From an uncultured Clostridia bacterium (GTDB taxonomy: Bacteria; Bacillota; Clostridia; Oscillospirales; CAG-272): a stretch of 59,218 nucleotides of DNA. How positions within the stretch are numbered: position 1 is the first letter of the stretch; every line of letters begins with the position of its first letter. The notes under the pieces were generated by a model, which was not told the origin of the DNA, ran no database searches, and was given only the letters and a program-made list of their open reading frames with translations. Positions 24,105 through 54,195 of the stretch are shown here, piece by piece. Made by a program: the position numbers and the translations under genes. The DNA is taken from positions 1-59,218 of the forward strand of contig CAMKAU010000004.1 of NCBI GenBank assembly GCA_946410595.1. The letters run 5' to 3'.

Positions 24105-25494
24105 AAAAATGTCACCTGACAGGAGATTTTCCTGCCGCGGCGTATAATAGGAAAACCAGAAAAGGAGAACTCCGATGAAAAAACTTGCTTCTCTTTTGCT
24201 CGCGCTCGTCTTCCTCGCTCTGCCTCTTCTTTCCGCCTGCCAAAGCGCGTCTCCGGCGGAGACGGCGCCCGCGACCGACCCCGTTACGGCGGCGCCGGAA
24301 ACCAACCGTCCGGATGACGAAAGCAAAGCGACCGGGCAGCCGATCGTGAACCCCGTTCAGCCGAAGACCGGCACCCTCTCCGAGGAGTTCGTCCGGGGAG
24401 AAGCGGCGTTCGCTCTTGACCTCTACCGGAAGTTCTATCAGAAAAACGGGAAAAACGCGCTCGTTTCCCCGCTCTCCGTTTCGGTCGCGCTCGCGATGGC
24501 CGCAAACGGCGCGAAGGGGGAAACGAAAACGCAGCTTGAAAAACTTCTCTGCGCCGGAATGGACGCGGACGCCCTCAACACCCAGCTCTACGCCTATATC
24601 ACCTCGCTTGCAAACAGCGAAAGAGCGACGCTCAAGGCCGCCGACTCCGCCTGGTACGCGGAAGACGTACTAACGCCGGACGAAGCGTACCTCAACCTCC
24701 TTGACGCGTATTACGCGGCGGAGGTAAGGAAGATCGACCGTTCTCTCGCCAAACCGGAACAGCCGGTCAACGACTGGGTCAAGGAAAAAACCGACGAAAT
24801 GATCCCCTCGATCCTCCCGGACGGCGCGATCGACGAGTACACGGCGATGATCCTCGTGAACGCGCTCTCCTTTATCGCGGAGTGGCAGCATAAGGGAATG
24901 ACGACGTGGGACAAACCGTTTACCGGCTCCGACGGGAAGGAAAAAACGCTTCCCTTCTTCTCGTCCGAGGAATACGGCTATATCAAAGGGGAACGCGAGG
25001 TCGGCTTTGTCAAGCGGTACTCCGGCGGGACCTACGCCTTCCTCGCTCTGCTGCCCAACGAAGGGACGAAGATCGCCGACTATATCGCCTCCCTCGACGG
25101 GGAAAAGTACCTCACGCTCGTCAACAGCGCCGAGGAGCGGAAGGTCATTACCGTGATGCCGGAGTTCACGACCGACAGCTCCGCCTCGCTCGTTGATCTC
25201 CTCAAATCCCTCGGCGTAACGGACGTTTTTGACAGAGACAAGGCGGATCTCACCGGGATCGGAACGACGAAAGAGGGGTATCGCCTCTACGTCTCCGACG
25301 TCCTGCACAAAACGCATATCGAGGTAACGAAGGACGGAACGAAAGCCGCCGCCGCGACCGCGGTCATCATGCCGGCGGCGAGCGCCATGCCGGTCGAAGA
25401 GCCGCCGCGCGTCGTCCTTGACCGGCCGTTTTGCTACGCGATCATCGACACCGCGACCGGTCTGCCGATCTTCTTCGGCTGCTACGAGGGATAA
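23940..25494 (+). repeat. Near-identical direct repeats flanking both serpin reactive-centre loops
   Basis: 23940-23974 equals 25330-25364 (35 bp identical); 24021-24104 vs 25411-25494 differ at 5 of 84 positions. Confidence 0.9.
24175..25494 (+). CDS. Serpin family lipoprotein 2
   Basis: Lipobox LSAC; same serpin motifs; hinge GTKAAAAT; LDRPF. Confidence 0.95.
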   Translation: MKKLASLLLALVFLALPLLSACQSASPAETAPATDPVTAAPETNRPDDESKATGQPIVNPVQPKTGTLSEEFVRGEAAFALDLYRKFYQKNGKNALVSPLSVSVALAMAANGAKGETKTQLEKLLCAGMDADALNTQLYAYITSLANSERATLKAADSAWYAEDVLTPDEAYLNLLDAYYAAEVRKIDRSLAKPEQPVNDWVKEKTDEMIPSILPDGAIDEYTAMILVNALSFIAEWQHKGMTTWDKPFTGSDGKEKTLPFFSSEEYGYIKGEREVGFVKRYSGGTYAFLALLPNEGTKIADYIASLDGEKYLTLVNSAEERKVITVMPEFTTDSSASLVDLLKSLGVTDVFDRDKADLTGIGTTKEGYRLYVSDVLHKTHIEVTKDGTKAAAATAVIMPAASAMPVEEPPRVVLDRPFCYAIIDTATGLPIFFGCYEG

Positions 25495-25497
25495 CGC

Positions 25498-26127
25498 ATG
25501 AAGCGGTTTGCCTGTTTCCTTGCCGCGCTGCTGCTCGCGGCGCTCCTTCTCTCCTCCTGCCAGAGCGCGTCCCCCGCGGAGACGGCGCCGGCCGGAGAGG
25601 AGACCGCGCCGGACGGAAAACCGCTCGGCGAGCGGGTCGAGCCGAAGACCGCCCCGGGGGCGCTTTCCGATACGACGCTGGAGTTCTGGATCTGCGAGGA
25701 CGTGGAACACTTTGATTTTTCCGCTTACACGCCGCGCTTCGGTATCATCGGCGGCAAGGAATACTACGGAACGGGATACGCCCCGACCTCGGAGGGGGAC
25801 GACCCCGAGCGCTATGTCGTCTACACCGTCACGCGCTGGCCGGACTACGCGGATCCCGGCGCCTTTGTGACCCGGATCACCGTGACCGACCCCGCCGTGC
25901 GGATCGGAGGGATCACGACCGCCTCCTCGCCCGATGAGTTCCGGGCGGCGATGGAAGGGGCCGGGCTCACCGTCGCGGACGGAGAGGCGCTCTCGGATCT
26001 GCTCGACTTTTCCCTGACCGCGACGGCGGACGCCTATTGGATCTCCTTCTCCCGGGCGCGCGGCGCCGCCTCCGGCACGATCCGGATCGTCGCCCCGGTC
26101 GAAAACCGCGAGGGGATCATCTATTGA
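25498..26127 (+). CDS. Hypothetical lipoprotein with serpin-like leader
   Basis: Lipobox LSSC followed by QSASPAETAPA, identical to serpin 2; the remainder is unrelated. 3-nt gap to serpin 2. Confidence 0.8.
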   Translation: MKRFACFLAALLLAALLLSSCQSASPAETAPAGEETAPDGKPLGERVEPKTAPGALSDTTLEFWICEDVEHFDFSAYTPRFGIIGGKEYYGTGYAPTSEGDDPERYVVYTVTRWPDYADPGAFVTRITVTDPAVRIGGITTASSPDEFRAAMEGAGLTVADGEALSDLLDFSLTATADAYWISFSRARGAASGTIRIVAPVENREGIIY

Positions 26128-26167
26128 AAAAAGCCCGGCAGAGCGTTTGCTCTGCCGGGCTTTTTTT
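26127..26167. terminator. Bidirectional rho-independent terminator
   Basis: AAAAAAGCCCGGCAGAGC-gttt-GCTCTGCCGGGCTTTTTTT between convergent genes. Confidence 0.9.
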
Positions 26168-26172
26168 CGTTT

Positions 26173-26772
26173 TCAGAAGGCGCGGCGGATGGCGGCGAGG
26201 AGCTCGCCGTAGGTCTCGCAGGTGGGGATATCCGGGTTTTCCGCCTTGATCTTATCGGTGCTGCAGAAGAGAAAACCCGCCTTGCTTGCCCGGATCATCG
26301 GGAGGTCGTTGTAGCTGTCGCCGGAGGCGATCGTCTCATACCCCATCGTATGGAGCGCGCGGACGGTGGTCAGCTTGGTGTTCTCCACCCGCATCCGGTA
26401 GCCGGTGATCGCGCCGTTTTCCGCCACCTCGAGGGTGTTGCAGAAGATGGTGGGCATCCCGAGTTTTTTCATCAGCGGAGCGGCGAACTGCTCGAAGGTA
26501 TCGCTGATGATCACAGTCTGCGAAAAGGAGCGCAGCTCGTCGAGAAAATCCTTTGCGCCGGGGAGGGGGTCGATCGTTTCGATCACGTGGGCAATCTCTG
26601 GCAGTCCGAGCCCGCGCTCCCGCAGAACGTCGAGACGCCAGCGCATCAGTTTGTCGTAATCCGGTTCCTCGCGGGTGGTGCGGGTGAGCTCGGGGATCCC
26701 GCTCGCCTCGGCGAACGCGATCCAGATCTCCGGGACAAGGACTCCTTCCAGGTCAAGGCAGGTAATCGTCAT
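26173..26772 (-). CDS. thrH: Bifunctional phosphoserine phosphatase/homoserine phosphotransferase
   Basis: CLDLEGVLVPEIW, TTREEPDYDKLM, SDTF, GDSYND (HAD motifs). Start at ATG 26772. Confidence 0.95.
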   Translation of the reverse strand: MTITCLDLEGVLVPEIWIAFAEASGIPELTRTTREEPDYDKLMRWRLDVLRERGLGLPEIAHVIETIDPLPGAKDFLDELRSFSQTVIISDTFEQFAAPLMKKLGMPTIFCNTLEVAENGAITGYRMRVENTKLTTVRALHTMGYETIASGDSYNDLPMIRASKAGFLFCSTDKIKAENPDIPTCETYGELLAAIRRAF

Positions 26773-26804
26773 AGTGGTTTCTGTTTCCTTTCTGTGCGTA
26801 TCTC

Positions 26805-27761
26805 TCAAAGCGAGGCGGCTCCGATGATACCGGCGTCGTTGCCAAGCTCGGCGATGCGAAGTTTTGTTTTTTTGGCGCTGCGGCGGGTGTACTGATCCCG
26901 CTCCACAAGGGGAACGAGGGGGTTAAGAAGCGCTTCTCCCTCCCCGGACAGTCCTCCTCCGATGGAGAGGACCTCCGGCTGGAAGATATTGACGAGATCG
27001 GTGATCCCGGCGGCAAGGTCGCAGAGGTATTCGTCGACAACGGCTTTGGCCTCGGCGTCGCCCTCCCGCATACAGGTAAAGGCGGTGCGCGCGCTCACCG
27101 CGGCCGGATCGCCGCCGACGGCGTCGAGCATTTTCGTGGGGATCCCGAGCGCGATCGCGCGGACAAGCCGCTCCCGCGTGCGGCGGACAAGCGCCGTGGC
27201 GCTGGCGTACGCTTCAAAACAGCCGCGCCTGCCGCAGGAGCAGAGGAGGCCGCCCTCCCGGAGCAGGATATGCCCGAGCTCCGCCGCGGCTCCGTTGACG
27301 CCGACGAGGATCTTCCCCCCGAGGATCACGCCGCCGCCGACACCGGTGCCGAGGGTGATCATAACCGAGTTTTTCGTCCCGCGCGAGGCGCCCGCGAGCG
27401 CCTCGCCGAGCGCGGCGGCGTTGCCGTCGTTGGAAAGGCGGACCTCCCGTCCGTCGAGGAGCGCGGAGAGCGTCCGGGCAAGCGGATAATCACGAAACGG
27501 CAGGTTGGAGGAATAGCTGATCGTTCCCTCCTCCGGGTCCACGGCGCCGGGGGACGCAACCCCGATCGCCCCGCAATCGGAAAGCGAAACGCCGTACTCC
27601 GCGGCAAGCGAGCGGCAAAGCTCCGCCATATCCGCGGCGATCTCCTCCGGCGGACGGCGCGCGCCGGTAGGGACGCTCTTTTTGGCGAGGAGGCGATAAT
27701 CCTCCCCGACCAGACCGGCGGCGATATTCGTCCCGCCGAGATCAATCCCGATCCGAAGCAT
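26805..27761 (-). CDS. ROK family sugar kinase (glucokinase-like)
   Basis: GIDLGGT, NDGNAAALGE, LGTGVGGG, ELGH, CSCGRRGCFE, GNDAGIIGAA. Confidence 0.93.
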   Translation of the reverse strand: MLRIGIDLGGTNIAAGLVGEDYRLLAKKSVPTGARRPPEEIAADMAELCRSLAAEYGVSLSDCGAIGVASPGAVDPEEGTISYSSNLPFRDYPLARTLSALLDGREVRLSNDGNAAALGEALAGASRGTKNSVMITLGTGVGGGVILGGKILVGVNGAAAELGHILLREGGLLCSCGRRGCFEAYASATALVRRTRERLVRAIALGIPTKMLDAVGGDPAAVSARTAFTCMREGDAEAKAVVDEYLCDLAAGITDLVNIFQPEVLSIGGGLSGEGEALLNPLVPLVERDQYTRRSAKKTKLRIAELGNDAGIIGAASL

Positions 27762-27791
27762 CCGTTTTTCCTCCGTTTTGATACTGGCTTT

Positions 27792-27820
27792 ATTGTAATC
27801 GCTTCGTCGCGCAAAGTCAA
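27792..27820 (-). promoter_or_regulatory. sigmaA promoter of ROK-thrH
   Basis: TTGACT-N17-TACAAT. Confidence 0.75.
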
Positions 27821-27863
27821 GGGGAAAGGAAAAATCCGACCGTCCGCGCCCGCCTTTTCCGGG

Positions 27864-27906
27864 GAAAAAACGGCGTCTCCCGCAAACCGGGAGACGCCGC
27901 TTTTTT
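27864..27906 (-). terminator. Terminator of the nucleoside ABC operon
   Basis: AAAAAACGGCGTCTCCCG-caaac-CGGGAGACGCCGCTTTTTT. Confidence 0.8.
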
Positions 27907-27926
27907 CTTTCAATCCCGCGCCGGGA

Positions 27927-28934
27927 TCAGCGCATCCCCTTATCGTACGGGATGCCCTCCGCCTTCGGCGCGCGGGAGCGCTTGGAGGTAAAGGCAAGGA
28001 CGATCAGGACGACCGCGTAGGGGATGAGGTTGTAGAAATACATCGGCAGGTTGAGATCCTTGAGGAAGAAGACCTCCTCCCCTTTGATCGTGACGCTGAT
28101 CTGCGGATAGATCACGCCGAGGCACTTGAGGAAGCCGAAAAGCAGCGAGCCGAACGCGATGCCGAGCGGCTTCCAGTTGCCGAAGATCATGATGGCAAGC
28201 GCAAGGAAGCCCATCCCGGCAACAGCGCCGGAGGCCGTTCCGTTTGCCACGGTGGCAACGTAGATATATCCGCCGAGACCGGCAAGCGCGCCGGAAACGG
28301 TAGTGCCGAGATAGCGCATCTTCTGCACGTCGATCCCCACGCTGGCCGCCGCCTGCGGATGCTCGCCGCAGGAGCGGAGGCGAAGGCCGGTCTTGGTCTT
28401 GTAGATCAAGATCGAGAAGAGGATAAAGAGCCCGACGGCGATAAAGGTGGAGATATACGCTTTGTCGAAAAAGACCTTACCGACGGGACCGAGATCGTCG
28501 TTGAGCAGAACAAAGCCGAAATCCTTCAGCTTGCCGCTGCTGTCCGCCTCCATCGTCATCTCCAGCTGGTCTTTGCTGAAGAAGACCTTGATGAAGAAGA
28601 GGGCGATCGCCGGGGCCAGCATATTCAGCGCCGTGCCGCCGATGGTCTGATCCGCCTTCAGCTTGATCGCGGAGAAGGAGAGAAGGAGCGAGAAGAGCGC
28701 CCCGCCCACCGCCGCAATCGCCATAGCGAGCAGGAAGGTCAGCTGATTGTGATCCACGAAATAGGGCGCTTTGCGGAGGAGGTAAGCGGTCAGCGCGCCG
28801 ATGAAGGAGCCGAAGATCATAATACCGTCAAGCGCGATATTGATGATGCCGCTGCGCTCCGCGTACATGCCCGCCAGCGCCACGATGAGCAGCGGGATGG
28901 AGAAGATCAGCGTTTTTTGAATGAGAAAGATCAC
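27927..28934 (-). CDS. Nucleoside/sugar ABC permease (NupC-like)
   Basis: ERSGIINIALDG, GLRLRSCGEHPQAAASVGI, GFLALAIMIFGNWKP. Confidence 0.92.
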   Translation of the reverse strand: MIFLIQKTLIFSIPLLIVALAGMYAERSGIINIALDGIMIFGSFIGALTAYLLRKAPYFVDHNQLTFLLAMAIAAVGGALFSLLLSFSAIKLKADQTIGGTALNMLAPAIALFFIKVFFSKDQLEMTMEADSSGKLKDFGFVLLNDDLGPVGKVFFDKAYISTFIAVGLFILFSILIYKTKTGLRLRSCGEHPQAAASVGIDVQKMRYLGTTVSGALAGLGGYIYVATVANGTASGAVAGMGFLALAIMIFGNWKPLGIAFGSLLFGFLKCLGVIYPQISVTIKGEEVFFLKDLNLPMYFYNLIPYAVVLIVLAFTSKRSRAPKAEGIPYDKGMR

Positions 28935-30214
28935 AGCGCGTTACCTCCCTTCTCCGTTTTTTCCTCCGCCTCGGCGGAGGCGTCCGCCGCAGCGGGCGCG
29001 GGGGGCTCCTTCGGATCCGGGTCCGGGAGAGGAGCGGCCGGGGCGGCTTCCGCTTTTTTGATCCGTTCTTTGGACAAAAGGTCCTTAATCAGCTTGGAGA
29101 AGCCGGAGAAATAGATGATCACGGCGACGATCAGCGGAGAGACGTACTCGTTGAAGGAGGTCTGCGCCGCCAGATTGGAGCCGCCGACCGAGATATACTT
29201 CAGGAAGATCGCGGAGAAGATCACGCCGATCGGGTTATTGCTGGCAAGCAGGGCGGCGGGAATGCCGTTGAAGCCGTCGGCGGGCAGGGAGAGGTAGGTG
29301 TTCCAGATGAAATCCTGCGCGCCGTTGAGGCACCAGAGCGCCGCGCCGCAGGCGGCGAGCGCGCCGGACAGCGCCATCGCGAGAACGATATTGCGCTTTT
29401 CGTTCATGCCGGCGTATTTGGAGGCGTTTTTGTTGTATCCGCACGCCTTCAGCTCGTAGCCGAACGTCGTTTTGTTGATCACGATATAAAGCACAACGGC
29501 GATCCCCGCGGCAAGGAAGATGCTGATATCCATATAGGAATTGCCGAGCAGCTTGTCAAGCCCGAGGGTCGCGGTCGCCACGCCGTTGGAGGCCGTTTTG
29601 CGGATGAAGCTGACCTTGGTCTCCGCGTAGTTGATGAAGCGGTCTCCCGACGCCTGGAAGATCCAGGAAACGAGGTTGGCGGCGATCCAGTTGGTCATGA
29701 TGCAGACGATCACTTCATTAACGTTGAAACGCGCCTTGAAAAACCCGGGGATCGCCCCCCAGATCATGCCGAGCAGCGTGCCGGCCAGCAGCGCGAGGAT
29801 CCACACGATCCACGAGGGGATCACGTCCGTCGGGAGAGAGAGGGAGACGATCAGCGCGCCCGTCGCGCCCATCAGATACTGCCCCGGCGCGCCGATATTG
29901 AACAGGCCGGTCTTGAAAGCGAGCGCGACCGAAAGGCCGGTCATGATCAGGGGCGTTGCCTGGAAGAGCATATTCCCGAGCTGGAAGAGCACGTCCTTTG
30001 CGCTGCCGGCGGAAAGCGGCCCGCCGAGAACGATCAGGATCCCGGAGAAGGCCTCCGAAAAGGGGATATCCTCCGCAAAGACGGCGAGCAGGAGCAGCAC
30101 GATAAACCCGACGAGGATCCCGCCGAGAATGCTGACGAGAGAGGCGAAGACCGATCTTGCGCCGCTCTTTTTCAGAAGAGGAACGCGCTTATCGGTTTTT
30201 TGCGGTCCGTTCAT
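28931..30214 (-). CDS. Nucleoside/sugar ABC permease (NupB-like)
   Basis: GLFNIGAPGQ, NEVIVCIMTNWIA, FGYELKACGYN...YAGM. Confidence 0.92.
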   Translation of the reverse strand: MNGPQKTDKRVPLLKKSGARSVFASLVSILGGILVGFIVLLLLAVFAEDIPFSEAFSGILIVLGGPLSAGSAKDVLFQLGNMLFQATPLIMTGLSVALAFKTGLFNIGAPGQYLMGATGALIVSLSLPTDVIPSWIVWILALLAGTLLGMIWGAIPGFFKARFNVNEVIVCIMTNWIAANLVSWIFQASGDRFINYAETKVSFIRKTASNGVATATLGLDKLLGNSYMDISIFLAAGIAVVLYIVINKTTFGYELKACGYNKNASKYAGMNEKRNIVLAMALSGALAACGAALWCLNGAQDFIWNTYLSLPADGFNGIPAALLASNNPIGVIFSAIFLKYISVGGSNLAAQTSFNEYVSPLIVAVIIYFSGFSKLIKDLLSKERIKKAEAAPAAPLPDPDPKEPPAPAAADASAEAEEKTEKGGNAL

Positions 30215-44118: not shown

Positions 44119-46152
44119 ATGAAACACGCGAAAAAACTGTACGGTCTGCTGCTGGCGGGTGTCCTTCTTCTTTCCTCCTGCGCGCCGTCCGCGCCGCCGG
44201 CCGATACGGCGGAGCCGACCGGCGCGGAAACGGAGGCGGAGACGGAGCCGGAGGGGACGGTCCGCTTCACGGCGCCGGAAGACTCCTCCCTCGTTTTCTC
44301 CTCCGCGGATGCGGAGGCGGCGTCTAAAATAAAACCGCTTTACGGCTCCATCGCCTTCAAGAACGGAGAGTTCCGCGCCACGAAGCAGGGGGACTACTCC
44401 ACCCTGCTCTTTGATACCGACGCGCTCGGCGACTTCATCGCGGAGTGCGACTTTGTCGACCACCGGGCGGGCGGCGGGCTGATCGTCCGCGCGAACGGAG
44501 AAAAAGCGAGCGGCGCGAGCGCCAACTCTTTTTACGGGTATCTCGCCTTTATCGGCAAGGACGGCGGCCTCGGCGCCCTCGGCGCCGCCTCCGACGACGG
44601 CGGCTGGAAGGGCAATCTCTTTGTCTCGCCGGATAATATCACGAAGGTCGGGACGAGTTTGCATCTGCGGGTCCTCGCCGTTGCCGATTATCTCGTCTAT
44701 ACCGTCCGCGACAACGCGACGGGCGGGGAAATCTTCCGCTGCGAATACCGGCTGGGCGACAGCAAAAACGACGTCCTCTCCGCGACCTCCGGCCTTGTCG
44801 GTCTGCGGCTTTACAACGACGGCGGCGCCGGGTGCATCAAAAACGTGGAGATCCGGTCGCTGAAAACGGTCGCCGAGGCGCTCACCCTTCCGAAAGGATC
44901 CGCCTTTTCGGCGCGGATCGCCGTCGGCTCCTCCGAGCGGCTCACCGTCCTCTCGGAGAGCGGCGCGGGTTACGCGTTCCAGATCGATCCCGGGTCAGAC
45001 ACCGTGCTCGTCACGCGGGTGACCGGCTGGTCGAACAAATACGCGGCGCGCTATTCCCTGCCGATCGCGGAGGGGCGCGAGTATCCCGTCGGCGTCACGC
45101 TTGCGGACGGGGTCTGCCGCTTCTTCTTTGCCTATGAAGACTATCCCCTCTTTGAGGGAACGATGACCGACAAAACGGCGGCGGTCAGCGCGTCTTTCTC
45201 CTTTGACTCTCTCCTCGCCGACGCGCCCGCCGCGCCCGAAAAGACCTACAAAAACCCGGTCGTCTCCGGCGCGGATCCCGAGATCTTCTATGAAGACGGG
45301 GTTTACTATCTCTACACCTTCGGCGGCGGGAATGTTTCCGTCCAGACCTCGACCGATCTCTGCTCGTGGTCGGAGAAAACCGTCTGCCTCTCCCCGAAGC
45401 AGGACATCCCGACCCTCACGAGCTTTATGAGCCCGAACGTCTTCAAAAGCGGGGACACCTATTACCTCTTGATCGCCTCCAAGACCCAGGCGCAGCAAAA
45501 GGAGCGGATCCGCTACGCGACCGCCTCCTCCCCGGCGGGCCCCTTCAAAATGAAGGGAGAAAACGGCTTTGTCAACGACGCGCAGGAGATCGGCGGCGCG
45601 CCCTTTATCGACGAGGACGGAAAGATCTATCTGACCACCGTCCGCTTCGGCGGCGGCAACCACGTCTATCTCCAGGAAATCAAGGCGGAAAACGGCACGA
45701 TCACGCCGGTTACCTCCGCAAAGCTCGTGATCAACCCCGACCGGTACTACGAGATCGACGACTACGGCAAGATCGCCGAGGGCGCCGTGATCACGAAGCA
45801 CAACGGCCTTTACTATATGCTCTACGCCGCCGGCCACTACAAAGGGCACTACGGCGAAGCGTGCGCGGTCAGTGAGAATATCTACGGCCCCTACAAAAAG
45901 ATCGAGCACAACGAGGTCCTCTCCTTCACGTCCGCGGCGGACGGCGTCGGCGACTGCGTGTTCGTTTCCTCGCCGGACGGCAGCGAGCTGTTCGTCGCCT
46001 ATCACCGGCACACCTCGGTCGGCAACGAAGGGTCAAGCCGCAGCATCTGCCTCGACCGGGTCGTCTTTGTCCCGGATCCCGACGGCGGACCCGATCTTCT
46101 CCGCATCGTCGGACCCACCTCCACTCCGCAGAAGGCGCCGAGCGGCTCCTGA
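44119..46152 (+). CDS. Lipoprotein with N-terminal beta-sandwich region and C-terminal GH43-like five-bladed propeller (copy 1)
   Basis: Lipobox LSSC; YKNPV..GADP, SPAGPF, FIDEDGKIYL, AEGA..KHNGLYY, SPDG...YH. Confidence 0.85.
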   Translation: MKHAKKLYGLLLAGVLLLSSCAPSAPPADTAEPTGAETEAETEPEGTVRFTAPEDSSLVFSSADAEAASKIKPLYGSIAFKNGEFRATKQGDYSTLLFDTDALGDFIAECDFVDHRAGGGLIVRANGEKASGASANSFYGYLAFIGKDGGLGALGAASDDGGWKGNLFVSPDNITKVGTSLHLRVLAVADYLVYTVRDNATGGEIFRCEYRLGDSKNDVLSATSGLVGLRLYNDGGAGCIKNVEIRSLKTVAEALTLPKGSAFSARIAVGSSERLTVLSESGAGYAFQIDPGSDTVLVTRVTGWSNKYAARYSLPIAEGREYPVGVTLADGVCRFFFAYEDYPLFEGTMTDKTAAVSASFSFDSLLADAPAAPEKTYKNPVVSGADPEIFYEDGVYYLYTFGGGNVSVQTSTDLCSWSEKTVCLSPKQDIPTLTSFMSPNVFKSGDTYYLLIASKTQAQQKERIRYATASSPAGPFKMKGENGFVNDAQEIGGAPFIDEDGKIYLTTVRFGGGNHVYLQEIKAENGTITPVTSAKLVINPDRYYEIDDYGKIAEGAVITKHNGLYYMLYAAGHYKGHYGEACAVSENIYGPYKKIEHNEVLSFTSAADGVGDCVFVSSPDGSELFVAYHRHTSVGNEGSSRSICLDRVVFVPDPDGGPDLLRIVGPTSTPQKAPSGS

Positions 46153-46176
46153 CGCGCAAAAAGAAAGGAAAACGCT

Positions 46177-48216
46177 ATGAGACGACCGGGAAAACTGTTT
46201 TCTCTCTTTCTCTCCGGCGCGCTCTTTCTCTCCGCCTGCGCCGTTTCTCCCTCCGGCCCCGACGAAACGGCGGCAACCGGCGCGGAAACGGACGCGGAAA
46301 CGGAGCCGGAGGGAACGGTCCGCTTCACGGCGCCGGAGGACTCCTCCCTCGTTTTTTCCTCCGCGGACGCGGAGGCGGCGTCTAAAATAAAACCGCTATA
46401 CGGCGCCGTTACCTTTGAAAACGGGGAGTTTTGCGCCGCCCCCGACAAAAAAGGAGACTACTCCACCCTGCTCTTTGACACCGGCGCGCTCGGCGACTTT
46501 ATCGCGGAGTGCGACTTCGCCGACCACCGGGCGGGCGCGGGGCTGATTGTCCGCGCCGACGCGGAGAAGGCGACCGGCGAGAGCGCTGATTCCTTTTGCG
46601 GTTATCTCGCCTATATCCAGACGGACGGCGTGACGGCCGCGCTCGGCGTCGTTTCCGACGGCGGCAAAAAGAAAGGCAACGTCTACGCCTCCGAAAAAGC
46701 CGTTACCAAAACGGGGACAAGCCTGCACCTGCGGGTCCTCGCCCTCGCCGACTATCTGATCTACACGGTGACCGACAACGCGACGGGCGCGGAGGTGTTC
46801 CGCTCGGAATACCGCCTGGGGGACAGCAAAAACGACGCCCTCTCCGCGACCTCCGGCCTTGTCGGGCTCCGGCTCTGCAACGACGGCGGCGCCGGCTGCG
46901 TCAAAAACGTGGAGATCCGGTCGCTGAAAACGGTCGCCGAGGCGCTCACGCTGGAAAAAGGCGCCTCCTTTACCGCCGCGCTCACGCAGGGGAAAACCGA
47001 GCGGATCACCGTTCTCTCGGAGAGCGGCGCCGGTTACGCCTTCCATCTCGACGCGGGCTCCGACACCGCGCTCGTCACGAGGGTGACCGGCTGGTCGGAA
47101 AAGTACGCGGCGCGCTATTCCCTGCCGATCGCGGAGGGAAAGGAATATCCCGTCGGCGTTACCTTCGCGGACGGGGTCTGCCGGTTCTTCTTCGCCTACG
47201 AAGACTTTCCCCTCTTTGAGGGAGCGATGACCGACAAAACGGCAACGGTCAGCGCCTCCTTCTCTTTCAGCTCAGTCCTCTCCGACGCGCCCGCCGCGCC
47301 GGAAAAAACCTACCAAAACCCCGTGACGACCGGCGCCGACCCCGTCGTTCTCTACGATAACGGTCTTTATTATCTCTATACCTGCAATTCCAAAACGGCG
47401 TACGTCCAGACCTCGCCCGATCTCGTCTCCTGGTCGGAAAAGACGGTCTGCCTGACCTTCAAGGAGCAGATCCCCTCGCTCAACCTTGCCATGTCCCCCG
47501 TCATTTTCAAGTACGACGGGATCTATTACCTCTGGTTCTGCACCAAGACCGCAAGCCAGACGGACGCGCGGACCCGCTGCGCGACCGCCACCTCCCCGAC
47601 GGGTCCCTTCACGATGAAGGGAGAAAACGTCGTCCTCAACAACGCGACGGAGATCGCCGGCTTCCCCTTCCTCGACGACGACGGAAAACTGTATCTGACG
47701 CACACCCGCTTCGGCGGCGGCAACCACGTTTACGTCCAGGAGATCAAAGCGGAAAACGGCACGCTGACCGCCGTCTCGCCCGCCAGGGCCGTGATCCACC
47801 CGGACAGCTGGTACGAGATTGACGACTACGGCAAGATCGCCGAGGGCGGTATGATCGTCAAGCATAACGGCCTCTACTATATGCTCTACGCCGCCGGCCA
47901 CTACAAGGGGCACTACGGCATCGCCTACGCCGTCGCCAAGAGCGTTTACGGCCCCTATCAGAAATCCGGGTACAACGAGATTCTCTCCTTCACGTCAAAT
48001 GCGGACGGCGTCGGCTCCAGCTGGGTCGTCCCCTCCCCGGACGGCAGCGAACTCTTCGTCGTTTACCACCGCCACACGGCTGTCGGCAACGAGGGAAAAG
48101 CCCGCAGCGTCTGCGTCGACCGGGTCGTCTTCGTCCCGGACCCGGACGGCGGGCCGGATCTGCTGCGCGTCGTCGGGCCCACCTCCACCCCGCAAAAACT
48201 CCCCTCCGGCAGCTGA
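46177..48216 (+). CDS. GH43-like lipoprotein (copy 2, tandem paralog)
   Basis: Lipobox LSAC; colinear with copy 1 with long identical blocks. Confidence 0.85.
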   Translation: MRRPGKLFSLFLSGALFLSACAVSPSGPDETAATGAETDAETEPEGTVRFTAPEDSSLVFSSADAEAASKIKPLYGAVTFENGEFCAAPDKKGDYSTLLFDTGALGDFIAECDFADHRAGAGLIVRADAEKATGESADSFCGYLAYIQTDGVTAALGVVSDGGKKKGNVYASEKAVTKTGTSLHLRVLALADYLIYTVTDNATGAEVFRSEYRLGDSKNDALSATSGLVGLRLCNDGGAGCVKNVEIRSLKTVAEALTLEKGASFTAALTQGKTERITVLSESGAGYAFHLDAGSDTALVTRVTGWSEKYAARYSLPIAEGKEYPVGVTFADGVCRFFFAYEDFPLFEGAMTDKTATVSASFSFSSVLSDAPAAPEKTYQNPVTTGADPVVLYDNGLYYLYTCNSKTAYVQTSPDLVSWSEKTVCLTFKEQIPSLNLAMSPVIFKYDGIYYLWFCTKTASQTDARTRCATATSPTGPFTMKGENVVLNNATEIAGFPFLDDDGKLYLTHTRFGGGNHVYVQEIKAENGTLTAVSPARAVIHPDSWYEIDDYGKIAEGGMIVKHNGLYYMLYAAGHYKGHYGIAYAVAKSVYGPYQKSGYNEILSFTSNADGVGSSWVVPSPDGSELFVVYHRHTAVGNEGKARSVCVDRVVFVPDPDGGPDLLRVVGPTSTPQKLPSGS

Positions 48217-48319
48217 CGGCGCGAAGCCGGAAAACCGGACAAAAGACAACTCAAAATCACGACCCGCCCCGCGCCGTTTACGGCGGAAAGCCGCGCGGCG
48301 GGGCGGCAGGAGGAACACC

Positions 48320-49540
48320 GTGGAAGAATCTAAACGTTTTGCAAAAGCGACCTGGCAGATCATGGAGCAGCTTTTGGAGGTGGAAAGTCTCGACGAGGCG
48401 CTTGCCGGCAGTCTTAACACCATCCTCCGGGAACTCAACAGCGAGATCGGCGTCATCTGGCTGCTCGACGAAAAAACAAACTCGCTCCTTCCCCTCTTCT
48501 ATTCCGGTCCGGCGGACATCTCGGGGATCAGCATCGAAAACGGCGTCGGGATCGAGGGCGCGGTCACGAAAAGCGGAAAATCCGTCATCATCGAGGACGC
48601 GGAAACCGATCCCCGCTTTGAGGGCACCGTGTTCGACGATCACGACGTGCAGACGCGCACCATGCTCTGCGTGGCGCTCAACGACCTGACAAAAACGATC
48701 GGATGCGTGCAGATCATCAACAAGCGTGATCACAGTCCCTACGACCGGGAGGAGCTGCGGCTCTGCGAGCGGATGGCATCGCTTGCCGCGATCACGATCG
48801 CGGAAAAGGGGCTCCTTGTCGGAGAGGCGGAGGAACGGGAGGTCCTGATCTCCCTGCAGAACGTCGTGAAGGAGTTTGCCGTTCCCGGGCGCGTATCGCG
48901 CATCCTCAAGGGAATCAATCTGAACATATACAAGGGCGAGTTCCTCGTCGTCCTCGGAGAGAGCGGCTGCGGAAAATCGACCATGATGAACATCATCGGC
49001 GGCATGGACTACCTCACAGACGGAAAGCTGCTTGTGGAGGGCGTCGATTATTCCCACCCGACGGACGCGGAGCTCACCCTTTACCGCCGGAATTACATCG
49101 GCTTCATCTTTCAGTCCTACAATCTGATGCCCAACCTCTCCGCGCTGGACAACGTGCGCTTCATCGCGGAGCTTTGCCGGGATCCGATGCCGCCGGAGGA
49201 AGCTCTCGCGCGCGTGGGTCTCGGCAACAAGGGCGGCAGCTTTCCGTCACAGATGAGCGGCGGACAGCAGCAGCGCGTGGCGATCGCCCGCGCGCTCGTC
49301 AAACGTCCAAAACTGATCCTCGCCGACGAGCCGACGGCGGCGCTCGACTACGAGACAAGCATCGAAGTCCTCTCCGCCATCGAAGAAGCGGTCAAAAAGG
49401 AAAACACGACCGTCGTCATGATCACGCACAATCCCGAGATCGGGAAAATGGCGGATCGCATCGTCAAGCTGAAAAACGGACGCGTCTTCAGCATCAAGCA
49501 TAACGCGGCTCCCCTCAAAGCCACGGAACTGGAGTGGTGA
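48320..49540 (+). CDS. GAF domain fused to a LolD/MacB-type ABC ATPase
   Basis: GTG 48320 with AGGAGG RBS. First ~165 aa are GAF-like (GIEGAV..SGKSVIIEDAETDPRF...IGCVQIINK); then GESGCGKS, FIFQSYNL, MSGGQQQR, ADEPT, ITHN. Confidence 0.9.
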   Translation: MEESKRFAKATWQIMEQLLEVESLDEALAGSLNTILRELNSEIGVIWLLDEKTNSLLPLFYSGPADISGISIENGVGIEGAVTKSGKSVIIEDAETDPRFEGTVFDDHDVQTRTMLCVALNDLTKTIGCVQIINKRDHSPYDREELRLCERMASLAAITIAEKGLLVGEAEEREVLISLQNVVKEFAVPGRVSRILKGINLNIYKGEFLVVLGESGCGKSTMMNIIGGMDYLTDGKLLVEGVDYSHPTDAELTLYRRNYIGFIFQSYNLMPNLSALDNVRFIAELCRDPMPPEEALARVGLGNKGGSFPSQMSGGQQQRVAIARALVKRPKLILADEPTAALDYETSIEVLSAIEEAVKKENTTVVMITHNPEIGKMADRIVKLKNGRVFSIKHNAAPLKATELEW

Positions 49541-49543
49541 GCG

Positions 49544-52500
49544 ATGACGAGAACACAGTTCAAAGACGCGCGGAAAAACGTACGGAAGCAGATCGTCTCC
49601 TTCCTTTCCATTGTCCTTGTCGTCGCGCTCGGTACGGGGATCTTTCTCGTGTGCCGCATGGGCTCGCTGTCGACCGGAAACGCGGGAAACACGTTTTATG
49701 ACAGGATCCGGTATCATGATCTGGAGATCCGCGCCACGCGGGGGATCACGCGGGAGGACGTGGAAGCGGTCAAGCGGTTCGAGGGCGTCATCGATGCGGA
49801 GGGAATCATCGCGGCGGATCTGATCGCCGAAAGCGAAACGGGGAAAAGCGCCGTCCGGGCGATCTCGCAAACGCAGCGGGAGGACGCCGTCCTTCTCGCG
49901 GACGGGCGGCTCCCCGAGCGAGCGGGCGAGTGCGCCGTCACCCCGGAGCTCGCGGCGTCGCTCGGCGTCGCGCCCGGTCAAACGATCACCGTTTCCCGGG
50001 AGAGCGGCGGCGTGACCTTCCTCAAGACCGGAACATACACCGTCACCGGGATTATGATCCACCCGGACAAGATCCGGAAAAACGAAATGTCTGTCTCCAA
50101 TCTTCTGCTCACCGTCGATTCGTTCGACACGGAGGCCATCGGCGTCCCGTTCACCGGGATCTTAGTCCGGGTAAACGCCGACAGCGACGCGTTTTCCGAC
50201 CGGTACGCCGAACAGATCGGTTCGTACCTGAACGCTCTGACGCTCTTTGGGAAGGAACGGGCTGTCCTGCGCGACGCGGAGATCCTCGCGGACGCCGAGA
50301 AGAAGATCGGGGAGGGAGAGACGACGCTGGAAACGGCCAGAGCCGAACTCGACGAAGCGAGAGAAAAAGCCGCCGATGGCGACGCGGTCCTCTTCGACGC
50401 CGAGCGGCAGCTGCAGACAGCGCGGATCACCCTTGATCTCTCAAAGCAGCAGCTTCTCTCAAGCAAAACGGAGATCGACAACGGAAAGGAAAAACTCGCC
50501 AAAGCGAAAGCGGAGCTCGAGAAAGCCAAAACAGAGCTGGACGGCGGCAGAGCGCAGCTCGACGCCGCCAAAGCCGAGCTGGAAAAAGCGGCGGCTGAAA
50601 TCGAAGAAAACGAAAAAAAGCTCAAGGAAGGCGAAAAAGAGCTTCGAAAGGGAGAACAGGAGCTTGAAGAAGCGCGGGTCAGGCTCTCGGTCGCGCAGGC
50701 CGTGATCGACGAGGCGGAACGCAGCATCGATACGAACCGCCGACTCTTCAGCGCGGTGCTGACCGATCTCTGGCCCGATCTCAAGGATCAGATCACGGAA
50801 AACCTGATCCCGATCCGAGAGCTTTCTCAAAACTTCACCCTTCAGGCGGAGGATCTGATCCGTTCGGTCGCAGAGCAAAACGGCTTTTCCGCCGCTCTGA
50901 TCGAGGCCACCCTCTCCCAGCTCGAAAAAAGCGAGACGTGGCGGCAGGTCAAGTCCCTCTACGACCGGCTCCTCGAAGGGGTCGACCAGCTCGGTAACGC
51001 CTCGGCGCAGTACGAAGAGGGGCTGGCGGAATGGGAAAAAGGCAGAGAGGAGTACGAACGGGGCGCCGCTTTGCTGGAACAGGGAAAGGCGGAATACCGC
51101 GACGGGTACGCCCTCTATCTTGCAAAGGAAAGCGAATACGCCTCCGCTTCCCTCCTCTATCAGGCCAATCTTTCCTCGTACGAAAGCGGTCTTGCCGAAT
51201 ACGAAGAGGGGCTGGCGCGATACACAGACGCCGAAAAGCAGCTTGCCGACGGTGAAAAAGAGCTGGCGGAAAAAACGAAAGAATGGGAAGAAGGAAAAGA
51301 GCAGCTTGCCGACGGCAAGGCGCTGCTCGCCGAAAAAGAGGCGGAATATGAAAAGGGCGCGGCGGAGATCGCCCGCGCGAGAGCGATTCTGTCGGACACG
51401 CAGGGCGGGAAATGGATCGTGCTGCCCCGCTCCCTGAATCTCTCCTTCCACGAAATGCAGGACACCGTCTCGATGTTCTCAAACATCGGAATCTCCTTCG
51501 CCGTGCTGTTCGTGCTGCTCGGAGCCCTTGTCTGCTATGCCACGATCGGGAAAATCATAGACGAACAGAGGCGTCTTGTCGGCGCGACAAAGGCCCTCGG
51601 CTTCAAACGTTCGGAGATCTTCTCAAAATACCTGCTCTTCGGAGGCTCCGCCTCCGCCCTCGGCGCGGTCGCGGGGATCTTGATCGCGTACTTCGTTTTG
51701 CAGCCGATCATGGTCGGTTCGATGGAGGAGTCCTTTTCCATCGGGGAGTTCCGGTTTGTATTCGAGCCGGTCCCGTCGATTCTCGCGATCCTGATCGCCG
51801 TTTCGGTCGGGATCCTTGCCACTCATACCGCCTGCGGAAAACTCCTGAAAAAACCGGCGGTCAAACTCCTGAACGGCGAAGTCAAAGGGGCAAACAACAA
51901 AGAACAGCGCCGCGAGGACGGCGTAAAAACGAAATCGCTGTACGCCGGTCTGATCTTCAAGAATATCCGGGGGGATCTCAAACGAGTGGCGATCACCGTC
52001 GCCAGCATCGCCGGATGCTGTATGCTTCTGATCATCGGCTTCTCCCTGAAATTCTCCTTCCTCGGCGTAACGGAGAACCAGTTCGGTCAGATCCTCCGTT
52101 ACAACTCGACCGTTTCCTTCCTTCCGGAGGAGAGCGGACAGGCGGAAGAAGCCATCGCCGCCGCAATCGACCGGTCGGCCGAAGCTAAGCTGCCGATGTA
52201 TGTGACAGGGACCGTGATGCGGATCGGGGATTCCTTTGAAACGGTGCAGCTTTTTTGCGCGGATCCGGACGAGCTGATCCATTTCTGCTCGCTTTACGAC
52301 GTGACAAAAAAACAAACCGCCCGGATCCCGGACGGGGGCGTTATCATCTTCAACCGTCTGGCGGAGATCTACCGTCTTTCGATCGGGGATCATCTGAGCA
52401 TCCTCGACGCCTCGGGCGCCTATCACGACGTGCCGGTCTCCGGGATCTATGACAACTACTTTGGACGTAACGTCTACCTGTCCGCGGACTACGCCAGAGA

Positions 52501-53047
52501 GCTCTTCGGCGACGCGTACGGGATCAACACCTTCGCGGTCAAGCATAAAGACGAGAACGAGTCCGCTCTCCGCGCCGATCTGCTGAAGGAGAAAAGCTTC
52601 ATCCAGCTTACCACGAAGGCTGAACTGACGGAAAAGGTAAACGTCGCTTCCCGGTCCATGAATACCGTGATCCTCGTTATGATCACGATGTCAGCCATTA
52701 TGGCGGCCGTGGTCCTGCTCAATCTTGTTAAAATCCAGATCAATCAAAAGAAGCGCGAGCTCACCGTGATGCGGATCAACGGATTCACGATCCGGGAAAC
52801 GGTCAACTATATTCTGCGAGAAAACGTGATCACCGCGTTCTTCGGGATCGTATCGGGTCTGGTGATCGGAAATGCGGCGGCGCGCTACACGCTTTCCACG
52901 GTCGAGAGGGTCGAGCTCCGGATGATCCGGCAGATCAGCGTCCCCTCCTGCCTCTTCTCCGTGCTGATCACCCTCTCCTTCGCGGCGGTCGTCAACTGGA
53001 TCGCTCTGAGATCAATCCGCCGTCTGAGTCTGACACGGCTTGACTGA
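49544..53047 (+). CDS. FtsX/MacB-like permease, two TMD repeats with long extracytoplasmic coiled coil
   Basis: 1167 aa; IDEQRRLVGATKALG and KKRELTVMRINGF FtsX motifs; E/K/A heptad-rich central region. Confidence 0.92.
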   Translation: MTRTQFKDARKNVRKQIVSFLSIVLVVALGTGIFLVCRMGSLSTGNAGNTFYDRIRYHDLEIRATRGITREDVEAVKRFEGVIDAEGIIAADLIAESETGKSAVRAISQTQREDAVLLADGRLPERAGECAVTPELAASLGVAPGQTITVSRESGGVTFLKTGTYTVTGIMIHPDKIRKNEMSVSNLLLTVDSFDTEAIGVPFTGILVRVNADSDAFSDRYAEQIGSYLNALTLFGKERAVLRDAEILADAEKKIGEGETTLETARAELDEAREKAADGDAVLFDAERQLQTARITLDLSKQQLLSSKTEIDNGKEKLAKAKAELEKAKTELDGGRAQLDAAKAELEKAAAEIEENEKKLKEGEKELRKGEQELEEARVRLSVAQAVIDEAERSIDTNRRLFSAVLTDLWPDLKDQITENLIPIRELSQNFTLQAEDLIRSVAEQNGFSAALIEATLSQLEKSETWRQVKSLYDRLLEGVDQLGNASAQYEEGLAEWEKGREEYERGAALLEQGKAEYRDGYALYLAKESEYASASLLYQANLSSYESGLAEYEEGLARYTDAEKQLADGEKELAEKTKEWEEGKEQLADGKALLAEKEAEYEKGAAEIARARAILSDTQGGKWIVLPRSLNLSFHEMQDTVSMFSNIGISFAVLFVLLGALVCYATIGKIIDEQRRLVGATKALGFKRSEIFSKYLLFGGSASALGAVAGILIAYFVLQPIMVGSMEESFSIGEFRFVFEPVPSILAILIAVSVGILATHTACGKLLKKPAVKLLNGEVKGANNKEQRREDGVKTKSLYAGLIFKNIRGDLKRVAITVASIAGCCMLLIIGFSLKFSFLGVTENQFGQILRYNSTVSFLPEESGQAEEAIAAAIDRSAEAKLPMYVTGTVMRIGDSFETVQLFCADPDELIHFCSLYDVTKKQTARIPDGGVIIFNRLAEIYRLSIGDHLSILDASGAYHDVPVSGIYDNYFGRNVYLSADYARELFGDAYGINTFAVKHKDENESALRADLLKEKSFIQLTTKAELTEKVNVASRSMNTVILVMITMSAIMAAVVLLNLVKIQINQKKRELTVMRINGFTIRETVNYILRENVITAFFGIVSGLVIGNAAARYTLSTVERVELRMIRQISVPSCLFSVLITLSFAAVVNWIALRSIRRLSLTRLD

Positions 53048-53065: not shown

Positions 53066-53105
53066 TCCCGCGGCGCCGGATTTTCGGCGCCGCGGGGATT
53101 TTTTT
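53066..53105 (+). terminator. Rho-independent terminator
   Basis: TCCCGCGGCGCCGGA-tt-TTCGGCGCCGCGGGG followed by ATTTTTTT. Confidence 0.85.
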
Positions 53106-53137
53106 GAGTTTTTGAAGGGTTTTTCGCCGCGGGGGAA

Positions 53138-53166
53138 TTGACTTGAAAACACACCCTTGCTATAAT
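53138..53166 (+). promoter_or_regulatory. sigmaA promoter of GMP synthase
   Basis: TTGACT-N17-TATAAT with TG extension. Confidence 0.85.
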
Positions 53167-53220: not shown

Positions 53221-54195
53221 ATGGAAAACAACAGAAGACCCGAATCGATGGAGCGCATCACCACCCCCGCGCTGGCAGAGGCGTTTATCGCCGAACAGAT
53301 CGCAGCGCTGAAAAAGCAGATCGGAAACGGCAAGGTCCTGCTCGCCCTCTCCGGCGGCGTGGACTCCTCGGTCGTGGCGGCCCTGCTGATCCGCGCGATC
53401 GGGCAGAATCTCGTCTGCGTACACGTCAACCACGGCCTGCTGCGCAAGGGCGAGCCGGAGCAGGTCATCCGCGTCTTCCGGGACGAACTGAACGCCAATC
53501 TGATCTACGTCGACGCCGTCGACCGGTTCCTTGACAAGCTCGCGGGCGTCGCCGATCCCGAGAAAAAACGCAAAATCATCGGCGCGGAGTTCATCCGCGT
53601 GTTTGAAGAAGAAGCAAGAAAGCTCGACGGCATCGGCTTCCTCGCGCAGGGCACCATCTACCCCGACATCCTCGAGAGCGACGGCGTCAAGGCCCACCAC
53701 AACGTGGGCGGCCTGCCGGAGGACCTCCGCTTTGAGCTGGTCGAACCGGTCAAGTTCCTCTACAAGGACGAGGTGCGCGTGGTCGGCAAAGCGCTCGGCC
53801 TGCCGGACAATATGGTCTACCGTCAGCCCTTCCCCGGTCCCGGGCTCGGCGTGCGCTGCGTCGGCGCGATCACCCGCGACCGTCTCGAGGCGCTGCGCGA
53901 GGCGGACGCCGTGGTGCGCGAGGAGATCGGCAAGCTCCCCTCCGTGCCGTGGCAGTACTTCTGCGCGATCCCCGATATCCAATCGACCGGCATCAAGGAC
54001 GGCAAACGGTATATGGGCTGGGTCGTCGTGATCCGCGCGGTCAACACCGTCGACGCCGTTACCGCGACCGTGCCGGAGATCCCCTTCTCCACCCTCTGCA
54101 CGATCCGCGACCGTATCGTCGCGACCGTCCCCGGCGTCAACCGCGTGGCGTGGGACATCTCGGAAAAACCGGTCGCCACGATCGAGTGGGAATGA
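53221..54195 (+). CDS. guaA: GMP synthase, ATP-pyrophosphatase plus C-terminal domain only (subunit B-like)
   Basis: LSGGVDSSV, DPEKKRKIIG, QGTIYPD, HHNVGGLP, RQPFPGPGL, KPVATIEWE. No N-terminal glutaminase domain. Confidence 0.93.
   Translation: MENNRRPESMERITTPALAEAFIAEQIAALKKQIGNGKVLLALSGGVDSSVVAALLIRAIGQNLVCVHVNHGLLRKGEPEQVIRVFRDELNANLIYVDAVDRFLDKLAGVADPEKKRKIIGAEFIRVFEEEARKLDGIGFLAQGTIYPDILESDGVKAHHNVGGLPEDLRFELVEPVKFLYKDEVRVVGKALGLPDNMVYRQPFPGPGLGVRCVGAITRDRLEALREADAVVREEIGKLPSVPWQYFCAIPDIQSTGIKDGKRYMGWVVVIRAVNTVDAVTATVPEIPFSTLCTIRDRIVATVPGVNRVAWDISEKPVATIEWE

Follow-up and report, generated by a model that had tools for sequence, protein, structure and literature searches.

The question raised by this locus is what signal could act on an ATP-binding cassette (ABC) ATPase that carries a GAF domain at its N-terminus. 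The locus belongs to a 59,218-nucleotide stretch of DNA, here called the window, from an uncultured Clostridia bacterium (contig CAMKAU010000004.1 of assembly GCA_946410595.1), and consists of a GAF-ATPase fusion gene followed by the gene of its permease. A preliminary description, made from the letters of the DNA, had read the pair as a one-component transporter controlled by a second messenger or a metabolite, with GAF motifs resembling those that bind cyclic AMP (cAMP) or cyclic GMP (cGMP). The evidence assembled here points to a protein partner instead. The answer towards which we lean, with confidence somewhat better than even, is that of a type VII ABC system whose GAF has lost the contacts for cyclic nucleoside monophosphates (cNMPs), and in which a kinase/phosphatase sets the phosphorylation of a STAS protein that would, when unphosphorylated, dock on the GAF and reset the motor. 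The elements on which the argument turns are these:

48320..49540, plus strand: GAF-ABC ATPase fusion gene, type B as defined below, 406 aa (sequence, Pfam, NCBIfam, AlphaFold2)
48320..48814, plus strand: GAF domain spanning residues 1-165; its remodelled pocket has I43, V45, F60, E79, F105, H108 and T112 (Pfam, model, alignment)
48842..49537, plus strand: ABC ATPase domain of the MacB/LolD/FtsE family; Walker A, Q-loop, signature, Walker B, D-loop and H-switch all intact (sequence, structure match)
49544..53047, plus strand: duplicated FtsX-type permease, 1167 aa, 8 predicted transmembrane segments, 1+3+1+3 (Pfam, hydropathy)

The joining of a GAF domain to an intact LolD-type ATPase, as first described, is borne out by both domain and fold searches. 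The Pfam matches are GAF_2 over residues 22-160 (E 1e-14) and ABC_tran over residues 196-340 (E 2e-31), and an AlphaFold2 model of the fusion (predicted local distance difference test, pLDDT, 83; predicted TM-score, pTM, 0.75) has two domains and a flexible linker at 167-171. Modelled by itself (pLDDT 86), the N-terminal part has a GAF fold, with the Lcd1 GAF-cAMP structure 5W10 as its best Foldseek match and a VIA comparison with the PtsP GAF 3TRC giving Z 21.9 (root-mean-square deviation 2.2, 164 residues aligned). The ATPase part matches structures of MacB, MJ0796, BceA, HrtA, YtrE, YbbA and LolD, with TM-scores of ~0.85-0.90 against the nucleotide-binding domains (NBDs) of MacB, MJ0796 and YtrE; the best NCBIfam models for the fusion are DevA, DarD, MacB and LolD, each scoring below its own cut-off. 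Its motifs recur among 204 full-length homologues (Walker A in 202, Q-loop in 204, signature in 204, Walker B in 194, D-loop in 203, H-switch in 204). The 1167-aa coiled-coil FtsX permease is also as first described: its gene begins at 49544 after a 3-nt gap, and the protein combines two FtsX domains with a MacB_PCD domain, which is the outer domain of MacB type, and with a heptad-rich insert of ~385 aa; it has eight hydrophobic segments. By every feature that could be tested, the pair is a type VII (MacB/FtsX-fold) ABC system.

The fusion is a family and not a singleton. A search with the GAF region gave 1268 matches among 2015 candidates, and the best 120 all combine GAF with ABC_tran, most of them at 405-409 aa. 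A scan of GTDB found 72 loci, 71 of which match the window GAF at 49-71% identity, mostly in Clostridia of the rumen and hindgut (Oscillospiraceae, Christensenellales, Lachnospiraceae, Ruminococcus, Saccharofermentans). Mean identity across 45 representatives of the window's type is 69% in the GAF and 76% in the ATPase. The fusion is conserved and under selection, and it likely has a regulatory role.

In the pocket, two types of fused GAF part company: type B, to which the window belongs, and its sister type A. In GAF-B of CyaB2, cAMP is contacted by R291, T293, I308, D356 and N359 (PMC4411481), and a profile alignment places I43, V45, F60, F105 and H108 of the window protein at these positions. 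For the GAF tree and for the comparisons of pocket and motif conservation and of interface residues, sequences were first made non-redundant at 84-92% identity. Seven pocket positions were considered (43, 45, 60, 79, 105, 108 and 112), 79 and 112 having been added as positions of phosphate or ribose contact in cNMP-binding GAFs. Type A reads ATFADTT in 64 distinct fused GAFs, identical at five of the seven positions to the ISFADTT of PDE2A GAF-B, whereas type B mostly reads AAFEFNT (114 sequences) and the window IVFEFHT. Among type A representatives D105 is found in 11/11 and T108 in 10/11; among those of type B, E79 is found in 43/45 and F105 in 44/45. The nucleotide-contact residues are changed in the window protein and largely kept in type A.

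The motifs on which cyclic-nucleotide sensing had been proposed, DPRF and NK-x5-Y-x3-E, are indeed present, but the likeness of the second to NKFDE extends only to N134 and K135, with Y141 in place of F, E145 of D and L146 of E (type B has E at this D of the motif; type A keeps D145 in 11/11 representatives). Moreover, these motifs lie off the ligand: NKFDE residues make no ligand contact in the account available in PMC11977230. Judged by its pocket residues, the window GAF lies outside the canonical cNMP binders, and the cyclic-nucleotide reading suits the sister type A only.

The gene neighbourhoods divide along the same line. Among 46 type A loci, a cyclase is found in 22, a metallo-β-lactamase (MBL) fold gene in 16 and a STAS gene in none; among 74 type B loci, a cyclase is found in none, STAS in 40, SpoIIE in 13 and RsbW-like genes in 18. 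Where a type A locus extends at least 7.5 kb downstream, the cyclase is present in 16/18. The typical type A operon encodes the GAF-ATPase, the permease, an MBL-fold hydrolase, a FecR protein, a CHASE2 cyclase and an NHL/SLH protein; one locus has a PAS cyclase upstream in place of the downstream one. This arrangement is likely a self-contained cAMP-gated transporter of gut Oscillospiraceae, cultured species included. Examples are the metagenome loci L131:8001-16511, L146, L152 and L157, as well as L107 (G542:C82). In some variants (L142, L144, L147; L128, L135, L150, L158) the permease and MBL gene are missing or the start of the permease is fused to the end of the cyclase, and in the permease-less ones the ATPase directly precedes FecR and cyclase; we regard these as deletions or misassemblies.

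The absence of an adjacent regulator, noted in the preliminary description, holds for the window, where two GH43 genes precede the pair and a gene for the C-terminal part of GMP synthase follows it (Pfam, NCBIfam), but fails for the family, as the STAS counts of type B indicate. In scored type B loci, STAS occurs in the flanks of 29/46 against 0.9 expected from ~4 STAS genes per genome, and it is the direct neighbour in 23/65, upstream in some and downstream in others. A start filter missed 6 of 71 loci in this scoring, none of them with STAS; four lie in the 50-genome set, hence 46. When carriers without STAS in the flanks were counted by hand, 20/21 still had the linked STAS elsewhere. Overall, the linked STAS clade was found in 50/51 type B carriers versus 38/201 genomes of the order (three of these 38 being known B carriers), and it was not found in the single type A genome, which is 87% complete. 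Class III cyclases were found in 7/52 type B carriers and in the single type A genome.

In the genome of the window's own host, which is 98.6% complete, neither a cyclase of class I, III or IV nor a GGDEF gene was found; a diadenylate cyclase is encoded. The genome carries a gene for a STAS protein (G000:C10:27072-27365), adjoined by a gene that fuses a membrane SpoIIE-type phosphatase to an RsbW-type kinase (HATPase_c_2; L112:11382-13526). Both belong to a partner-switch cluster at ~23500-29700 of that contig (L112:7540-13526), which comprises the membrane SpoIIE-HATPase, the STAS, a MATE protein fused to a degenerate HATPase and a STAS-APH fusion; other effectors appear to carry built-in receiver domains. 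In genome G457, a similar partner-switch module adjoins the GAF-ABC operon itself. In L035:12742-15693 and L051:7032-7643, genes of STAS and of ~175-205-aa proteins together form tandem repeats; the latter proteins have no Pfam match, resemble RsbW when judged by eye and are possible pseudokinases. Two type B carriers have small cytoplasmic class III cyclases beside cNMP-binding proteins (L115, L119). Nonribosomal-peptide-synthetase-like adenylation-carrier-condensation genes lie beside some operons (L046, L059, L087, L098, L099, L181), and occasional neighbours such as D-Ala-D-Ala dipeptidase, YkuD transpeptidase and DUF3089/DUF218 proteins hint weakly at a role in the envelope.

Where a STAS protein might bind is suggested by a structure prediction. 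A co-fold of the GAF-ATPase of locus L051 with the STAS encoded beside it scored 0.76, versus 0.06 for the best of three controls; at least 95% of the contacts are shared between runs, and the partner has pLDDT of at least 90. All confident contacts fall on GAF residues 5-20 (helix 1), 121-123 and 150-163 (helix 5), facing STAS residues 22, 53-62 and 84-94. In the window, the two helices correspond to:

48332..48379, plus strand: GAF helix 1 (residues 5-20), on which STAS is predicted to dock; M15, E16 and L19 do not vary within type B (co-fold, conservation)
48767..48808, plus strand: GAF helix 5, residues 150-163, other half of the predicted STAS surface, with T159 and E162 (co-fold, conservation)

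An independent comparison agrees with this surface: four contact residues, M15, E16, L19 and T159, are present in 33/33 type B representatives, versus 0, 2, 0 and 0 of 15 type A representatives. Conservation at interface positions is 0.86, versus 0.74 at other GAF positions and 0.81 at the remaining positions of the same two helices. The window GAF is identical to the modelled one at 18/19 interface residues (70% overall), and the host STAS at 15/16 (62% overall). Within the predicted interface lies STAS Ser54, invariant in 37 aligned rows, which aligns to Ser56 of RsbV, the phosphorylated residue on the RsbW-binding face (PMC7340262). Going by their names, the nine solved STAS sequences matched include no evident STAS-GAF complex. 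The co-fold supports, and does not show, binding of unmodified STAS to the type B GAF. As the type B evidence points to STAS as a protein partner, the system would not be a one-component one, contrary to its first description.

Taken together, these data suggest a sequence of events. A kinase/phosphatase of the type found in the host's partner-switch cluster would set the phosphorylation state of STAS, and the unphosphorylated form is predicted to dock on GAF helices 1 and 5 through its Ser54 face. Because these helices normally pair GAFs, and because helix 5 runs into the ATPase (through a ~10-residue linker in the window protein), such binding would reset the closure of the two ATPase domains; phosphorylation of Ser54 would release STAS again. 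The type VII family is described as acting by mechanotransmission, that is, ATP-driven work outside the membrane (PMC12646458), and ATP cycles would here drive work on the membrane's outer face or on the wall through the coiled-coil stalk, with no transport of a solute.

Several points weigh against this proposal. The window and its closest relatives have no adjacent STAS gene, the host STAS lying on another contig, and in one type B carrier (G831) the linked STAS was not found. The count of 50/51 is partly circular because the STAS profile was built from the carriers' own genes, and the counts overstate independence for this reason and because the carriers are kin and share a habitat. The single co-fold is that of a relative's pair with one GAF-ABC chain and no type A plus STAS control, and its score is only roughly calibrated, because our own alignments were used, by a mark that 116/157 solved complexes and 2/215 mismatched pairs reach. 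The predicted docking face is the usual GAF dimer face, left free in a one-chain co-fold, and a conserved acidic cluster of type B (E73, E79, D106, D107) lies away from it and is not accounted for by the proposal. The type A loci, on which the contrast with type B depends, include many near-copies and only ~4-5 distinct arrangements.

That acidic cluster may be a new small-ligand site, and this leads to the first alternative, that the ATPase is gated by a new small ligand seated in the remodelled pocket; this would probably be cationic or aromatic, such as an amine, a basic amino acid or a metal ion. The GAF fold is intact, and near the pocket type B conserves F60 (42/45), E73 (43/45), the aforementioned E79 and F105, and an acidic residue at positions 106 (45/45) and 107 (44/45), several of these being specific to type B. 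However, the pocket may just be occupied by F105, residue 108 is variable (N, Q, H, S or Y), and the loci share no recurrent gene for making or using a ligand. We consider this alternative unlikely; it would be compatible with STAS docking.

A second possibility, which we rate as less likely again, is that the GAF is a mere module of dimerisation or stability, and that its linkage to STAS comes from signalling islands that the genes share in Clostridia of the rumen. It has a precedent in PmGH, which dimerises solely through its GAF and helix 5 (PMC4159591), a surface conserved here. Consistent with shared islands, STAS genes in carrier genomes also adjoin MATE, APH and AMP-binding genes, and the window's subclade has no STAS beside it. 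On the other hand, an extra dimerisation module would be unneeded, as permeases of this family also operate with stand-alone ATPases (in Listeria, Subdoligranulum and Collinsella); the invariant residues specific to type B coincide with the predicted STAS contacts; and the co-fold controls did not exceed the value given above.

The third is the preliminary description's proposal in its cyclic-nucleotide form, in which cAMP, cGMP or a cyclic dinucleotide bound to the GAF would gate the transporter; it is in our judgement very improbable for the window copy. In its favour, the closest solved relatives are cNMP-type GAFs (5W10, 1YKD, PDE2A, PDE5), type A keeps the pocket and occurs with the CHASE2 cyclase, MBL hydrolase and FecR protein, and the host has a diadenylate cyclase. 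Against it stand the change of four CyaB2 contacts (R291, T293, D356 and N359 to I43, V45, F105 and H108), the Glu in place of Ala at position 79, presumably the helix start that binds the phosphate in cNMP GAFs, the lack of ligand contact of the NKFDE residues, the cyclase-type and GGDEF genes not found in the host and the scarcity of class III cyclases among type B carriers. Finally, although the source is a 111-contig assembly, an artefact of assembly or gene calling has practically no chance of explaining the fusion and is ruled out by the fused homologues, the GTDB loci and the cultured species that encode type A.

How the two types arose can be outlined from their relatives. In Listeria, Subdoligranulum and Collinsella, permeases homologous to the window's are paired with ATPases that stand alone, and the GAF is for this reason best seen as an addition to the ATPase. 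The nearest unfused GAFs are those of GAF-HD-GYP proteins at ~30% identity; a profile search with the representatives was dominated by multi-GAF proteins. In quick trees, with Shimodaira-Hasegawa-like approximate likelihood ratio test (SH-aLRT) supports, with six unfused ATPases for comparison, all the fused ones fall into a single group (98), consistent with one fusion event, and the fused GAFs stand apart from HD-GYP-type GAFs (100), with type B (100) nested in a type A grade that holds two intermediates. One HD-GYP-type GAF would have been fused to give a cAMP-gated ancestor with its own cyclase and MBL hydrolase, type A, from which type B would have been rewired. A third, divergent GAF-ATPase type (L178:3678-4889 in G694 and L179:9212-10429 in G1000) has ~25% GAF identity, has lost the NK motif and keeps the same permease, with neither cyclase nor STAS nearby. 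The spread of the family is patchy: matches were found in 4/400 other genomes of the host's order, 0/27 of its family and 4/398 of its class, the last being three fusions and one HD-GYP protein, and the family of the type A genome yielded no additional carriers (1/13).

The window system shares with the type VII systems MacB, LolCDE, FtsEX, YbbAP-TesA, BceAB, HrtBA and YtrEF the ATPase subfamily, the FtsX/MacB permease fold and the ATPase-permease operon (PMC12646458). It differs in the N-terminal GAF (only the NBD is covered among the Foldseek matches listed), in a duplicated permease of 8 transmembrane segments with a variable coiled-coil stalk, and in an operon without adaptor, TesA or histidine kinase partner; YbbAP-TesA has 10 such segments, and here no TesA is linked and the operon ends after the permease. 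Literature searches turned up no characterised example, as had been anticipated, and no description of a GAF-type VII ATPase architecture, most subscription papers and supplements being outside their reach; for the permease homologues, searches gave nothing functional. Most of these homologues are ~26-38% identical to the window's permease, a minority 40-57%, with stalks from ~2 to ~440 aa. One of the loci, L174, is by synteny probably lmo1223/1224. In L041, L043, L044, L048, L054, L059, L070 and L097, tandem permeases, mostly one short-stalk and one long-stalk, follow one GAF-ATPase.

ABC ATPases with regulatory domains are known, such as the C2 domain of MetN, CBS of OpuA, TOBE of MalK and FHA of Rv1747, in which the fused domain couples a signal to NBD closure. 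To our knowledge these represent other transporter classes and domains, and in none of them does a type VII ATPase carry a GAF. The closest parallel for the partner is MlaFB of MlaFEDB, in which a STAS protein binds the ABC ATPase subunit through a conserved Ser/Thr face; however, MlaB binds the helical subdomain of the NBD and a C-terminal handshake, whereas the site predicted here is the fused GAF (PMC7367683). The transporter class also differs, and the STAS protein here comes with a cognate-looking kinase/phosphatase. With SpoIIAA/AB and RsbV/RsbW the system shares a phospho-Ser STAS, the SpoIIE phosphatase, the HATPase_c_2 kinase and the same STAS face (PMC7340262), but its downstream target is predicted to be the GAF of a transporter. 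With CyaB2, PDE2A, PDE5, Lcd1 5W10 and the HD-GYP GAF of PmGH, it has fold and ancestry in common (PMC4411481, PMC11977230, PMC4159591); its output is instead a transporter ATPase, and type B of the window has lost the Thr/Ser, Ala, Asp and Thr of the pocket.

The remaining features of the locus concern its boundaries:

48308..48313, plus strand: ribosome-binding site AGGAGG, 6 nt ahead of the GTG start (sequence)
50264..51418, plus strand: extracytoplasmic coiled-coil insert, ~385 aa (heptad periodicity, insert lengths, SMC-like match)
53066..53107, plus strand: intrinsic-terminator-like hairpin (53066-53097; 14 bp, 12 GC) plus T-run, end of the operon (sequence)

The reading frame of the fusion gene is already open from an ATG at 47999, and the start was set at GTG 48320 because of the ribosome-binding site and the 405-409 aa of the homologues. 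Between the GH43 gene and this start, neither a sigma-70 promoter match nor a terminator was detected, and a GC-rich hairpin ahead of the start does no better than shuffled sequences (z -0.73). The GH43 genes (44119-48216) are tandem paralogues of ~678 aa, lipoprotein-like, and are not conserved neighbours in related loci. Downstream, an 11/12 sigma-70 promoter match (53138-53166) precedes the GMP synthase gene (53221-54195; 324 aa, TIGR00884), which encodes the C-terminal ATP-pyrophosphatase part only.

For the family as a whole, there may be two signal-gated forms, an ancestral cAMP-gated one with a CHASE2 cyclase and a hydrolase, and a derived one whose GAF, without a nucleotide pocket, serves as receptor for a phospho-switched STAS, a reading that we hold to be evenly balanced. 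If true, a GAF-STAS interaction and a mechanotransmission transporter under the direct control of a partner switch would each be seen for the first time, and the two forms would make a clean natural example of a sensor whose input changed from a second messenger to a protein. The family further warns that NKFDE-like or DPRF motifs alone are a poor basis for calling cNMP binding. Post-translational control of ABC transporters is poorly understood. The available text on MlaFB proposes phosphoregulation through STAS without showing it, and raises it as an open question (PMC7367683); for SypA and other STAS proteins with non-sigma outputs, and for HmpV, the downstream targets are described as unknown in the portion available of PMC10120452. 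Both questions become directly testable here because the domains are small and soluble (a 165-aa GAF and a 98-aa STAS), the residues are named and type A, which is found in cultured gut commensals, provides a built-in control. For the organism itself, control by STAS would let the cell switch an envelope machine directly by a protein signal.

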